NCBI GenBank assembly: GCA_965287045.1
Contig: OZ336885.1
Location: forward strand, 36,890,001 to 36,954,000
Direction: 5' to 3'
Length of the DNA: 64,000 nucleotides
Source: Carcharhinus amblyrhynchos
Taxonomy: Eukaryota
Shown in pieces: positions 5,014-57,239 of this stretch; positions within the stretch are counted from its first letter, which is position 1, and each line of letters begins with the position of its first letter. The position numbers and the translations under genes are program-made. Under the pieces are notes generated by a model that was given only the letters and a program-made list of their open reading frames with translations, did not search any database and was not told where the DNA came from.

Positions 5014-5072
5014 CTAAGAAGACTGGCTTGTTGCAGTGAGTCCAGAAAGATCTTTCCTTATAATTTCATTAA
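5014..5072 (-). CDS. NFATC2: NFATC2 terminal coding exon, (V)NEIIRKDLSGLTATSQSS*
   Basis: Strong acceptor tttcttttgtttccctcttttgttgcag|TT AAT GAA ATT ATA AGG AAA. A phase-1 join to the LDD-G exon gives the NFAT C-terminal LDDVNEII motif (human NFATC2 VNEIIRKEFSG). Stop TAG at 5016-5014. Too short for the ORF track. Confidence 0.95.
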
Positions 5073-5364
5073 CTGCAACAAAAGAGGGAAACAAAAGAAA
5101 TCACATTAAATCACTTGCGCCAGTTTTGGAATGCAATTACATAGTCAAATTCACGTACTAATCATTAATAAGTACATTTCTCAATTATCAGATAAAAGCA
5201 AATCTAACATTACATGAAGTTTAAGAATAGTTGTAAATCTCACAATAAATCAAAATGAAATAAGTCACGACACAGAGACTGGCTAAAGCACTGCAAAGGT
5301 GTAAATTTAACTTTCAACAATGGCATGAAAGAAGCCATATTGGATTTGGTGTCTATTATGAATT

Positions 5365-5935: not shown

Positions 5936-7830
5936 AGTTTTCATTTTTGTTCATCTCAACAGAAAGAGAAATGATGAACTGTCTCTACTAGGCAGTGGGT
6001 CCAAGATTATTCATTTTATACCATTGCTTAAAGTTAAAATTGCCCTTACTCTGCCTGTGCCTGGATGTTGGTTTGTGAATGATTCAAATTTATAACATAG
6101 TGCTTACAAGTCAACTTCAACCCTCCACAGGGCTTTGGATTTCAAATCATTTGCTGTCTAATATTGTCTTCTTTCTGTCAAGTGGTTATGAATATACTTT
6201 ATCTCTCCTGATCTCTGCCAAGGATGTAGCTCTTCTACATCCACTCAGATGCATATTTCAACTGTCAATCTAGATCTGAGCCCATTAATTTTATATTTCT
6301 TTCCCCTCCTTCCCCTCTTTCCTTCAGCTTTCTGTAATCCAGTTATGCCCTTTTTCATTTTTACTTTCTCAGGAACTACACTCAGGTCCTCAAAAGCTCC
6401 CATTCCGCCCACTAACTTTCACTGTTCATTTGCTGGCATCTAAGGCTTAAATACCCCTGAGATAAGTCCTTGACTAACCCCTGTGCATCTCTTGACATTC
6501 TCCATGGAGCCTGCAATTTTTGTTGTCACTTCACAAGTAGTACCCTAGTTGTCTTGCCTACCTTTGTGTTCGAGTTACCTTGAATTGACTTTCTGCCCCA
6601 GTCACTTTACCTATCTGCTGTCCTTTGGACTCTCCCATCAGATCTATGACTACCAGCCCTTTCTGTGTTCCCTTCCATAATGGCTATTCATTTGGAACAT
6701 GGGCCTTGTCTTAGCCTTGCAAACTATATCTAATGATTAATTTTGTCGAAGTAGGAGCTGAGTCATAAAAGGGGAACATTTTAATAATCAGATTTGCATT
6801 GTAGCATAGTGATTACCGACATAATAAAATTCATTCTCACATGCAGATTTTTGATGACAAAATAAAAGTATGATCCCAGGTAGGAATGAAAGCTGAACTA
6901 CAGAAATAAAATCACAATGCAAAGAAACTAAGTTGTGCGTTAGAAATTTACACTGGTGCATGCACAACGATCAAATGGCAGCATGTAATTTTATTTTTTT
7001 CAACAGACTAAATATCCAATATTTACAATTGGCTTCAGGTCATAATGTGGACACAATTCGCAACAAACACAAGCCTGATCATTCATTACTTTCCAAAATA
7101 AAGTCACCAGGTCAATTAGCCACAGAACCTTGCTTTAGAACTAAATCAAGAACATCTCCAACATCAGTGAGAAATGGAATTACATATTTAATCATTACAA
7201 AATAAACAAGGCCACATGTATTTGTAATCTTGCCAATAAGAAACTTATTGCGCGCTTATCTCAGCATTAGAGATTTTGAAATTCATAGATTAGTCAAACA
7301 GAGAAATACAAATTGGACGTTCACTACAGCGTAGCTCTACAAGACCACAGCAAGGTGGTGAAAGTTATTTTTCCATTCTATCAAATGTAGGTTTCAGCAT
7401 GTCTTTCTACAACTTCCTGCCTCATGTGTTAAACAAGGAAATGACAACTGTGAGTAAATGGAAAGTTTCGTTGCCCCCTCATTCTATTAATAGTTTGAAG
7501 GTGAAAGGTGTGGGCGGTAATCCTCAAATACCCTGTTTCCTCCTCACCTGCAATAGGTGAATGCAGGCACAACAGGCTGACTGTTGGTTCAACAGCACTT
7601 TGATGCTGCAGACTTTTTTTTAAAAAATGCTGCGTGCACAATCGTGACTGTTTTTCAGAACCATCAGAAGTTTGAGTAGATTCTATATGCTGAAGGGTTT
7701 AAATGGACCTGATGGCAAGATGGGTGTATTTGTTCGAGAACAACAATGTATGCCCAACAAAAAAAGGCAATGAACTAACTTACTGGCAGATGTCATGCTT
7801 AATGTATTAAAGGAAATGCCTTCCCATAAT

Positions 7831-48145: not shown

Positions 48146-49424
48146 TTGCGTCTAACCCAATCCCTAAGAACCTCCAACGGTAGGCTGCCAGTAAATGGAC
48201 ATATTCCAGCACTAACAGAATAAGAAAATATATATTCATCAGCGGAGTAGTGTGTACTTAAAGGAAGAACATTAACAAATTCTAAGCTGTTCTAATGATG
48301 TGTACGAATTATTTGATTTATTCAATGCACTTGTCCAAAATATCACTTTGGACTTAATGCTTGTTGTTATCATTCGGTATTAATTGTCAACACTCAAAAA
48401 AAAATGTGCTAATTTCACTTATTTATTTTCCATGCCAACATGGTAAACTAAATTAAGTTCCAAAACATTGCAAACAGAATTTTTAAAATATTTAAATCAT
48501 ATATTTTTTACATTTAATTCATCAAGCTTACTATTCCCTCAATATAATGCCAGCAGTGGCCTCCCTAAATTATCCTCTTAGAGCAGGAGCCTCCAAACTA
48601 CAGCCCACAGCGAGCTGCATCCAGATCGGAGTTTGGAGACTGCTGTCTTACAGAATAGTCCAGTCCAATGCTGGCATCTCCACATCATATCCAATTAGAA
48701 ATATGAAAATTCAACAGGAGGGGGGCGTTTGACTCAACCTCTGTGCCTACCAAGAAAGAGCTGTCCCACCAATCCCACTTTCTAGTTTCTGGTCTGTAGC
48801 TTTGGAGTTCATGATGGTTCAGATAAATATCCAAATACTTTTAAAGTCAATGATTGAAATGTCAGTGGAGGAAGAAGGGTTAAAGAACCCAAAGAAAAAA
48901 GGAACGCAAGCTTATCCTTACTAACATTGGAAAGTATACGGCTAGAAAAGACTAAGCAGTTCCATCAGGCCAGATACAAAACAAAATGGATTCCAAAGTT
49001 GAACAATGGATCTATTTTGCAATCCCTCGAATTCCATTTACTTCAGTCTTTTTCTTAAGATCATAGCTGTAAGTTTCAAGGTTTACTGCAACAAGTAATA
49101 ACCTTTCATTTTGTAAGACAATGGCTTGCACTCTGATAGTGAACTCTGTATTAAACACTGCCCAATGTGGTTAAAATCACAAGAACACAAGAAAGAGAAG
49201 CAGGAGTAGGCCACCAGATCCTTCAAGCCAGCCCTGCCATTCAATATGGACATGGCTGATCTGTGCTGGCCACAACTCATTTTCTGTGCCATTTCCTTAT
49301 AGCCCTCTCAATCTTGATCTATCAAATATTTATCCACCTCCACTCAGAATACTTCCAATCTATTTACACTCTTCCTTAAATAAGGTGGCCAATTTCACTT
49401 TTGCCCATGAAGGTACACTGTTGA

Positions 49425-54135: not shown

Positions 54136-55609
54136 AAAGACTTACTTTAGTAAGCGAGTGTCAGGCACTCTGGTTACATGACCAGCGTAGTTCAGGCACA
54201 AGTAATATATAAGTAGAATGAATGTGAAGTATTTGATACTTGATATAGACATTTAGGCTTATTTACCGTATACGTAAATAGGAATTTTCATATCGGAGGT
54301 GATTTCCATCTGAATAAACTGACAATTCATGAGATTGGAGGAGTTAATCCACGTAAATCCATTCAGCAGTGATATTAATTCCATATGCTTTTCATTATCA
54401 GATATCAAACTGGCTCATCCATTGACCTTTCGGATGAATGATCCCATTTGCCAACAGAGTTTGGTGTTTAGGAAATTAGGTTGCTGAATAGCTTCCAGGA
54501 ATCGCAGATTTAAAATCATCTCCATTATTCCTAGCAGGTGTGTTTGTTCATGATAAAGGTGCCTAAATGCAGCAAAAAAGCACGTTGCCCCATCTAACTT
54601 GCAATTGCAGATCAGATTTTCACAGATGAAAATTTCAAGAATTAGAAGTTAAAGTAAAGAAATGTTTGCCACATAATTTCAGCTCCATGCAAGTTTTAAA
54701 CGGGTATATGGGCCAAAACTGCCTATGAACTATTCAATCACTGCAGGCTTCGTGACCAGCCAATTCCTGTCCTCACCTGACATCACAGCGAGTTAACAAA
54801 TTGTGAGTGATTCATTTTGCAAATCTAAACTAATGTAACTGACCTTTTTTTAATCTCAGCTACTTATTCTGGAAAAATCACAACTATACCACATGGAATC
54901 TTTTAGGACTCCTAAGACTTTCCAAAAGAGGTTTTGGACACGAACCAGATTCTTTTCGTGTTACCTTTGAACTGTGTTGTAAGCCGACCTTTTAGCTGTT
55001 GTACTTCATGTTTTCAGATCCTTCTATATGAGCTTTATGCACCTCATAAAACTACATGTGTTTATGTGTTTTAGAAACTATCAAAAAAAAACTAAGCACG
55101 AACATCAGTTAGAAATGTAATGATCAGAGTTCTAGGTAACACAGTGGTTTAGGCTCCGTTCAGCTCCCTGTGCCTAAATGACTCTTGTGGTGACTCAAGT
55201 AAATGTATTCAAATGGATTACAGCTGACCATTTGCCTCAATGCCGGGTTTCGAAAGCTGCCAATGGGTATGGCTGAAGTCATTAGCACCTACCATCGAAT
55301 CTTTCCCATGGCAATCTATACTCCAAGGCGAGGTCCAAAATAATTCTCCAGATAATCTCTTTCGAATCAGAAAAATACTGATAAAATGACAAACAAACCA
55401 ACTCTTTACTAATCTTTAAGTGTCATGTTACTCCCATACAGGGACCCAAATTGGTCATGGGCAAAATAAATACAAAGTACAGCATGAATCATTAAATTGG
55501 CAAGTGCAATTCTGTGGTGGAATTGACACATCTTTATATCATGAAAATTGCACTACCATTACAGAAAGGGAAACATTTCACCCCGTGTGCTTTGACCCAA
55601 ACAATCATG

Positions 55610-55834
55610 GCAAACAGTCTCACAACACCAGGTTAAAGTCCAACAGGTTTATTTGGAATCATGAGCTTTCGGAGCACTGCTCCTTCATCAGGTGAAGATT
55701 CAACGGTTCATCCGATGAAGGAGCAGTGCTCCAAAAGCTTGTGATTCCTAATAAACCTGTTGGACTTGAACCTGGTGTTGTGAGACTTTTTACTGTGCCT
55801 ATCCCAGTCCAACACCGGCAGCTCCACATCATGG
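55610..55834. mobile_element. Non-autonomous Penelope-derived inverted-repeat element with a 13-bp target-site duplication
   Basis: Direct repeat CCAAACAATCATG at 55597-55609 and 55835-55847. ~80-bp inverted arms at 55616-55696 and 55707-55787. Tail CCCAGTCCAACACCGGCAGCTCCACATCATG, with a related tail at ~48660-48688. Confidence 0.85.
55660..55694 (-). ncRNA. Minimal hammerhead ribozyme motif with canonical core
   Basis: Minus strand: CAC-CUGAUGA-A-GGAGC-AGU-GCUCC-GAAA-GC-UC-AUG. The plus-strand copy in the other arm is mutated (CCGAUGA...AAAA). Confidence 0.7.
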
Positions 55835-56384
55835 CCAAACAATCATGTCTTTGAACCTAACTGAGATAGATAAAACATTTTTCTGATGAGTACTAATTCC
55901 AAACGAAATGAATGTCCCATTGCTGACTGAGCGAATACAAATGAAATAGATTGCTGTTACCTATTGCTATTAGGGTAATATCAGTTAAAAGGGTAATTAT
56001 ATTATGTAGTGCAGGAAATAAAAAAAATTGTGACTGAACAGTGTGGAGGAGACACTTCTCAGAAGTTAAGATCTCAGGTACAAATTTAGATAGGGAGATT
56101 TCGATATTGCATTTAATCCTTTCATTTTGGAGCTGGAAGAAGTTGATGCTGTAAGCGAACAAAAGTCAGTACAGGGAGAGATAGTCTGACAGGGGCTAGG
56201 AAACCTGTCATTCCTCATCTTTATGAGTTCAAAATGACAAGAGATACCTGCATGAGATTTTGTTTTAAAAAGAGATTTGTGATACTCAACATTTTCATTT
56301 TTTAAAAAAATCTGTATCATATTTTGTAAAGGTTCTTGTACTTCAGTTACACCAAGAACTTTATGACAAGAATTTTTTTCTTAC

Positions 56385-57239
56385 CATCATCCAGGTACGC
56401 CTGGTCCAGATTCTGTGGTTCCTGCTTCACTGTGACTCCGGTAACTGGATGTTCCTTCTCTTGCTGATCCAGTATCAATGATGTAAGCTGAGTTGGTGAA
56501 GTGCCATTTTTGGAAACCTTCTGGATTGCATTGGAATTTTGCTGCTGCTGCTGCTGCTGGATCACGGCCGCATACTGATTTGGATTACTTTTTTGCACAT
56601 GGTGTACTGCTTGTGGTGTAGTGGACCGCACAATAGGCACATGGGCATCATTCTCTGAATATACCTGGCGCTGGTAATCCTGGTGGCTGCTGTATCTCAG
56701 CTGCTGGCTGGTTGGTGAATGGTGAATCAGAGAAGATAACTGCGGATGGGTTGGGGAGTGTTGGATCAGAGATGACTGATGATTGGTTGGAGAATTGTGA
56801 ATCATGGAGGAAGACTCGTGGTTGTTATGGGAATGATGGATTATGGTGGAGGACTGATTGGTTGGAGAGTGGTGCGTCATAGAAGACTGGGCAGGTGACC
56901 CAGCGTGCACCAGCACTGATTTGTGGCCATCTTGAATTATGGGAATCGATGGCCCCATAACTGCAGATGGTTGATAGCCAAGATGATTAGGGCTGCCATT
57001 TTTGGATCTCTGATAGACAACCCCTGTTGGATTCTGCTGCTGGTATTTAGAATCATGTGGAGAAAATCCAGACCGACAGGAAGCCATGTTTCCCCCAAGG
57101 CAGGAAGTGGGGTTAGTGACCATTACTGGAGTCATGGCCTGCTGTGAAGAATAGAACTGAGACATGGCTCTATAATGTCCAGTGGTGCAGAAAATGGCTT
57201 CTTCACACTCATCAGTAGGTTCTGTTTTAATAATAGGTA
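56385..57239 (-). CDS. NFATC2: NFATC2 large C-terminal-domain exon (855 nt, phase 1-1), VPIIKTEPTDE...VKQEPQNLDQAYLDD
   Basis: Acceptor tttatttcag|TA CCT and donor GAT GAT G|gtaag. Matches human NFATC2 motifs IKTEPTDE, YQQQNP..YQRSK, HRSVLVHAGS and IKQE-QNLDQTYLDD. Confidence 0.97.

Follow-up and report, generated by a model that had tools for sequence, protein, structure and literature searches.

Head-to-head leader copies of a Penelope-like element in a shark NFAT intron: a hairpin probably joined from two separately primed cDNAs

The locus examined here raises the question of what a short, ribozyme-bearing hairpin represents in an intron of an NFAT gene of a shark: a mobile unit that is copied as a whole, a device acting on the host transcript, or a by-product of the integration of a larger element. 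In the window, meaning the whole 64-kb stretch of DNA that was analysed, the insert consists of two head-to-head copies of the leader of a Penelope-like element (PLE). These very probably arrived in one landing as two separately primed cDNAs which were then joined, and the duplex predicted to form between them would keep the hammerhead inactive.

The insert is 225 bp long (55610–55834) and is flanked by two identical 13-bp repeats, CCAAACAATCATG, at 55597–55609 and 55835–55847 (13/13), as the original prediction had claimed. They are a putative target site duplication (TSD), recognised from the duplication itself; no empty site was found among the joints and pieces listed from seven DNA runs of other organisms. 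The two arms are 85 nt each, 91% complementary and 10 nt apart, in good agreement with the arms of ~80 bp and the loop of ~10 nt first described. The inverted arm (55612–55696, minus strand) is a Penelope leader copy without tail which is sense on the NFAT pre-mRNA strand. Its 5′ end lies at -4 relative to C3 and its outer end is the short end of the family. It carries a minimal type I hammerhead (55659–55695, minus strand) with an intact core, C3 at 55691 and a predicted cut after 55663, and an AATAAA (55648–55653, minus strand) predicted to be paired in the hairpin (unpaired probability <=0.13). A 10-nt centre filler (55697–55706), found at the focal locus only, separates it from the tail-bearing arm (55707–55791, plus strand), a second leader copy with a broken hammerhead (55708–55744, C3 at 55712) and an AATAAA at 55750–55755. 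On this arm alone follows the one-sided Penelope 'tail' of 43 nt (55792–55834, plus strand), which makes the insert asymmetric and ends in the ATG (55831–55833) of the autonomous ORF. The insertion is reduced to two leader copies. Each arm has its AATAAA and there is no ORF, as had been claimed.

The outer junction of 6 nt (55610–55615) is ambiguous, being either a decayed arm end or a short filler; it is similar both to the template end and to the right-hand junction. The end of the TSD matches the end of the tail (ATCATGG), and the six nucleotides after the left TSD look like the right junction (55604–55615 and 55828–55840). It is possible that the primer on the top strand initially annealed to the tail cDNA, in which case the tail arm would be the earlier of the two. 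Elsewhere in the same intron, 29 nt at 48660–48688 match the tail at 86%, a tiny second remnant of the family without a hammerhead.

The parent of these arms is abundant. A 28-nt pattern from the tail matches the 2.9-Gb genome exactly at 6,696 sites, a count that takes in segmental duplicates, as does that of the 3,060 matches to the pattern of the nearest subfamily; reversed control patterns have none. In long copies (L145, L147, L158) the arm sequence forms terminal repeats ~3 kb apart. The reverse transcriptase (RT) domain (PF00078, RVT_1) was recognised with an E-value of 8.5e-10, RVT_1 being present in L149 and L145. GIY-YIG (PF01541) scored above cut-off in the C-terminal frame of L149, one of the three C-terminal pieces scanned from these frameshifted copies. 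A C-x4-C-x2-C linker precedes the GIY-YIG motif in the conceptual protein P0002, and a Cys-rich linker between RT and endonuclease (EN) is given as the mark of Neptune elements (PMC3846280); by its linker the parent family would be of the Neptune type. The tail ends at the start codon of the RT ORF, and the long copies continue from that ATG. Since the long copies carry the same sequence around the RT and GIY-YIG ORF, and since the tail ends at its ATG, each arm is the leader of the element, running from the start region through the hammerhead, the AATAAA and the tail to the ATG. A Penelope-like origin and a head-to-head pair of minimal hammerheads, one motif per strand, had both been proposed from the letters alone. 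Both proposals are supported, the source being the leader of a 3-kb RT and GIY-YIG element with thousands of copies.

How such hairpins arise can be approached from their relatives. For the census the 3,060 subfamily matches were taken in order of position up to the 70th, which confines the sample to contig C1; L111 was dropped as a duplicate of L110, leaving 69 loci. Detection of arms was conservative and missed some that are visible (L063, L066, L069 and L070, for example). An inverted arm was detected in 38 of the 69 loci. In a sample that had been selected for one tail, 36 of these 38 arms stop 5–20 nt past the anchor without a tail, the remaining two ending at 31 and at 45 (two tails). 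TSDs of 8–16 bp flank 25/38 hairpins, 5/31 other copies and 4/69 shifted controls. A tail at one end only, an inverted truncated copy and a TSD are what is expected of endonuclease-bearing (EN+) PLEs.

The original prediction had taken the hairpin for a non-autonomous unit mobilised as a whole, and had proposed a count of genome copies with the same ends and distinct TSDs as a check. Such a unit would be transcribed and retro-copied from a retrozyme- or SINE-like master gene. The outer ends are indeed common: a search with the whole element returned 40 scored hits, all of them hairpins with the focal outer ends, each with its own flanks and many with TSDs, although hits of this search are biased toward query-like hairpins and were excluded from the frequencies. 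The centres, by contrast, are different in the 30 of these hits examined, and a 25-nt pattern of the focal centre matches the genome once, at itself, with <=2 mismatches allowed. Shared ends thus come with a unique centre, where a SINE or MITE would have many copies sharing both ends and interior. Centres and arm lengths vary widely, the arms are independently truncated and are the leader of the autonomous element, the fixed outer ends are accounted for by fixed RT start sites, and the focal arms bear no one-strand A-to-G scar. Copying of the whole unit could nevertheless produce the identical centres that do recur in the family, of which there are at least seven perfect-palindrome pairs among the first 100 matches listed of a related subfamily. 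However, one short centre shared by L080, L081 and L090 faces either way with respect to the tail and is not confined to one subfamily (L080 versus L081 and L090), which favours repeated joining over copying. Taken with the unique focal centre, these observations leave whole-unit mobilisation very improbable.

Fold-back self-priming, in which a single cDNA or antisense RNA serves and the second arm is copied from the first, has a better claim, and head-to-head junctions have been read as self-priming on antisense RNA by Arkhipova et al. 2013 (PMC3846280). At the focal locus both arms end at -4, and 8 of the 33 hairpins with a centre gap of <=45 nt are nearly symmetric, with no more than 3 nt between their arm 5′ ends. 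Arms belonging to one insertion also share more subfamily variants than arms of different insertions do (21 shared over 20 loci, 1/10,000 permutations). Such sharing fits a single RNA or source, or else conversion at a later stage or activity of the subfamilies at different times. Against self-priming, the tail arm is longer by >10 nt in 10 of the 33 and the tail-less arm by >10 nt in 6. The latter cannot come from one-strand fold-back; neither arm could have been copied from the other, which calls for either a template switch or two syntheses on an RNA template. Tail-less solo copies exist as well, making the short end an independent start, and the focal centre is filler and not template sequence. 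As a general account self-priming is therefore unlikely, albeit possible for symmetric cases such as the focal hairpin, and the joining of two separately primed cDNAs is preferred.

A number of individual junctions deserve mention in their own right. The palindrome pairs of the related subfamily (on C1–C3, for example C1:44877886-44877919) have GGTGAATTCACC as their perfect junction, the product that would be expected if two cDNAs, each with its end at the predicted +1, had annealed by their terminal AT. The centre fillers of L059, L073 and L003 often repeat nearby arm sequence, and templated insertions of this kind resemble polymerase-theta end joining. In L089 (C1:18255318-18258346) the tail-less arm runs ~400 nt into the coding end of GIY-YIG, turns back for ~90 nt and is then connected to a tail arm of very short length, a template switch in several steps. 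L069 (C1:10574417-10577445) holds a mini-hairpin, ~500 nt of the 5′ end of the ORF and a second leader, and is an internally deleted two-leader copy. The near-identical tandem hairpins L049 and L050 (C1:6615994-6616324), 303 bp apart, were apparently duplicated along with a host tandem repeat.

The ends of the arms carry further information. The hammerhead core is reached by 66 of the 107 arm ends, and 45 of these 66 stop in the 12 nt just upstream, a density of 0.057 per nt as against 0.003–0.024 in ten other bins (p = 3e-13 versus the highest). In longer copies the A of ACTCACC has a TATA-like box 31–32 nt upstream of it, and the peak is covered by an Inr-like CCACTC. The site of the predicted start is judged here by the consensus spacing between TATA box and start. 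A TATA box with TCACT has been noted in a rotifer pseudo-LTR (pLTR; PMC3846280), and in Drosophila transcription of Penelope begins within the upstream pLTR, though from a TATA-less promoter (PMC2377424). Where the template C before this A is absent, a G takes its place in 65/100 cases (hand count over the first 100 listed of 1,547 matches), compared with 25/100 in a control one base further up (first 100 listed of 1,741; Fisher p = 1.9e-8). In work on L1 an untemplated G at the 5′ end has been interpreted as possibly copied from the mRNA cap (PMC9341517); PMC4729875 and PMC5174737 also mention untemplated G, and their accessible text adds nothing to the argument. One copy, L193, extends from G-ACTCACC across the leader and ends 25 nt beyond the ATG. 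A pile-up at the hammerhead cut itself was considered and rejected, 5/91 arm ends falling at +26 to +30, much as at neighbouring positions. Among 22 G-preceded ends that were inspected (L164–L193), 17 have a T before the G and unrelated sequence further up; the T may be a second added base or reflect an annealing preference of 2 nt.

The pile-up at the predicted start, together with the extra G, may mark RT run-off at the mRNA cap, a reading for and against which the evidence is about evenly poised. Extended to the hairpins, it would make them paired 'strong-stop' cDNAs: both nicks would prime at two starts beside the AUG of a capped mRNA, the cDNAs would run off the cap ~90–130 nt later, often gaining a cap-derived base, and their ends would be joined. 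We would give this an even chance. A tentative alternative is that RT stalls at the structure of the hammerhead, or that joins by microhomology are preferred at a short near-palindrome. It draws on the position of the pile-up at the 5′ strand of helix I. It draws further on the 7–8 of the 22 inspected ends which, by eye, could have taken their G from the partner arm or from the target or TSD, on the weaker excess of G in a second subfamily (39/100 matches listed, p = 0.048), and on the fact that none of 13 long copies starts exactly at the predicted site, 5 running beyond it and 8 stopping downstream. Both focal arms end 2 nt short of the predicted start. On the other side, ends cluster once the motif has been passed and not at helix II, the TATA-like and Inr-like elements are suitably placed with respect to the peak, ~14 of the 22 ends have no such source for their G, and the G is far less frequent one base upstream. 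A literature search, with incomplete coverage of subscription papers and supplements, found no description of cap run-off or twin priming in PLEs or of a palindromic Penelope family in sharks, and the pile-up at a predicted start with a non-template G is possibly new.

Returning to the joining of two separately primed cDNAs, the course of events at the focal locus can be sketched. The GIY-YIG nuclease would place staggered nicks ~13 bp apart. Each 3′ end would then prime RT on an uncleaved element RNA, one at a start on the ATG side and one ~35 nt upstream, and both cDNAs would halt near the 5′ end of the RNA, in this case 2 nt short of the predicted start site. End-joining of the cDNAs with a 10-nt filler would follow, the TSD being filled in, and later decay would have occurred mainly at CpGs. 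Precedent for several of these steps exists in an anole PLE, which has been shown to cut and extend both strands of its target, to begin RT at two internal sites, one at each boundary of the tail, and to use an uncleaved RNA as template (PMC11167929). The hairpin layout itself has already been published (PMC8557442, PMC3846280, PMC2377424). An inverted truncated copy with a one-sided tail is typical (PMC8557442), and in the accessible text of the same source the formation of the inverted ends and tail of PLEs is called undefined.

Whether the insert matters to its host depends on its setting. The penultimate coding exon of the host gene (56385–57239, minus strand) is predicted from GT/AG and frame, with the donor GT starting at 56384, 537 nt from the edge of the element, close to the ~550 nt originally estimated. 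The intron, by its predicted borders, spans ~51 kb from 56384 to an acceptor at 5073, the last exon lying near 5072. Searches of PDB and Atlas with the low-complexity penultimate exon gave nothing useful, and the gene was named from one of the Rel-domain exons upstream. Among the 11 PDB hits of the latter NFATC2 is best with 77 bits, NFATC4 follows with 34 bits, and NFATC1 and NFATC3 are absent. The host gene belongs to the NFAT family. The earlier naming of NFATC2 therefore stands as to the family, and the paralogue is likely NFATC2. Within the penultimate exon a CAG run (56539–56560) encodes poly-Q of a length that varies among related organisms. The reading frame stays open for 12 codons beyond the donor and then meets a stop (56347–56384, gene strand), and an AATAAA-type signal on the gene strand at 56117 is nearer the donor than the insert; a short intron-retaining isoform, independent of the insert, is conceivable.

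The insertion is old and shared with related species, as contigs of other organisms bridge its junction. Of seven DNA runs from other organisms, four (A, B, D and F) have contigs that extend 32 nt across the left junction, and in a fifth, G, the overlap is 29 nt. At the right junction the contigs of A, D, F and G cover 24–27 nt of the tail, short of the 31-nt bar. Runs X7 and X13 had no junction coverage, and contigs break inside the repeat. The flanks differ by 1.5–8%, and by 1.5–6% for the four runs that bridge the left junction.

The minus-strand motif reads CUGAUGA-A-GGAGC/AGU/GCUCC-GAAA-GC-UC. It has the CUGANGA, GAAA and UH elements, helix II and the palindromic 15.1–16.1 region, but it lacks the helix I pairing next to the cut (2.1–1.1): position 1.1 (55662) is an A opposite C2.1 (55692), giving a C·A mismatch beside the scissile bond. 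The core had been called perfect, which is accurate for the core motif and not for helix I. The A at 1.1 fits CpG decay, and 1,004 arms genome-wide combine an intact core with G at 1.1. The plus-strand core is broken in just the way described (CCGAUGA, AAAA). An Rfam scan returned no hammerhead family at E<=5, the motif being minimal and without helix III. The minus strand is predicted to fold at -149.7 kcal/mol (z = -16.2), with 0/200 shuffles as stable. In the folding model hammerhead helices I and II have a pair probability of 0.0 in the full context and in three co-transcriptional prefixes. With the arm alone helix II forms (0.6–0.8) and helix I stays at 0.0. The head-to-head layout means that the antisense arm is always transcribed ahead of the sense ribozyme, hence the absence of the hammerhead stems from these folds. 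Minimal motifs are thought to act as dimers, a single minimal hammerhead having shown no cleavage in vitro (PMC4209133), and a search of the 64-kb window for a second motif matched the focal minus arm alone. On these grounds, together with the mismatch at 1.1 and the unpaired stems, self-cleavage of the NFAT pre-mRNA at the insert, as first suggested, appears unlikely. The outcome preferred in the original prediction, a long duplex in the pre-mRNA that masks the ribozyme and keeps it inactive, is the one predicted here.

Co-option of the insert to regulate NFATC2, either by self-cleavage or by intronic polyadenylation which removes the last exon, would be favoured by the presence on the pre-mRNA strand, 0.7 kb below the donor, of an AATAAA and an intact catalytic core, and by the retention of the insertion in several related organisms. 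The focal arms are in addition the least diverged of 20 pairs (0.081 as against 0.095–0.247), a rank inflated by the choice of this locus for its clean look; this is a weak hint of constraint or gene conversion, and the value is also in line with the divergence of the flanks. The mismatch at 1.1, the unformed hammerhead stems, the predicted pairing of the AAUAAA, the lack of a dimer partner in the window and the nearer signal at 56117 all speak against co-option, which is highly improbable. Run X19, guessed to be RNA, gave contigs of the family only, the flanks in the focal intron lying outside its coverage. Judged by its fold, a role for the hairpin as a substrate of ADAR or Dicer is plausible. 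Intronic inverted repeats can undergo ADAR editing, and a duplex of 85 bp could do likewise. Most likely inert at this locus, the insert is probably a neutral inverted repeat of the intron that would serve at most as a substrate for A-to-I editing.

The focal locus is one of thousands of dead insertions, and regulation of NFATC2 by it is unlikely. Were the pre-mRNA cut or polyadenylated at the insert, an immune transcription factor would lose its last exon, though the evidence is against this. Its value lies in being a record of how PLEs integrate: independent truncation of the arms and a G-bearing pile-up at a predicted capped start offer a concrete alternative to self-priming. If paired run-off cDNAs are indeed the source of the hairpins, head-to-head inverted pLTRs would be explained without an antisense template, and thousands of junctions would map the transcription start of the element and directly test PLE integration.

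A number of parallels can be drawn with known systems. In L1 twin priming both target nicks prime cDNA, resulting in a 5′ inversion within one TSD, as is proposed here; L1 inversions, however, copy non-overlapping parts of the RNA, whereas the focal arms copy the same 85 nt from fixed starts and without poly(A). Insertion units of EN+ PLEs consist of a pLTR, an adjacent inverted 5′-truncated copy, a one-sided tail of 30–40 bp and a TSD (PMC3846280, PMC8557442). The focal family shares the head-to-head copy, the tail at one end, a similar TSD length, TATA- and Inr-like motifs in the pLTR and the start of the ORF at the end of pLTR and tail. It departs from the units described in the accessible text of these sources in that the focal insertion lacks an ORF and is reduced to the pair of leader copies, and in that mini-hairpins of this kind account for over half of the sampled copies (38/69). 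With Poseidon PAc of Anolis, studied in vitro (Frangieh et al. 2024, PMC11167929), it would have in common the two internal RT starts bounding the tail, the cutting and extension of both target strands, the uncleaved RNA template and a hammerhead near the ORF start. The PAc starts lie 111–118 nt and more inside the ORF, as against at and just before the ATG in the focal family, which has a Neptune-type Cys linker where PAc belongs to Poseidon; the accessible PAc text describes neither joining of two cDNAs nor run-off at a capped end. Like the minimal type I hammerheads of metazoan PLEs (Cervera and De la Pena 2014, PMC4209133), the focal motif has no helix III, a palindromic AGCU, a bulged base before helix II and a short helix I, and close opposite-strand pairs of such motifs are described in Schistosoma (PMC4209133). 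It differs from those described there in its mismatch at 1.1 and in being, as predicted, locked by its own antisense arm. Finally, non-LTR retrozymes (Li et al. 2026, bioRxiv 10.64898/2026.07.22.740005) are, like the focal insert, short, non-coding and PLE-derived with a type I hammerhead, but they are described as head-to-tail tandems with at least two motifs on the same strand, whereas the focal insert is head-to-head with one motif per strand.
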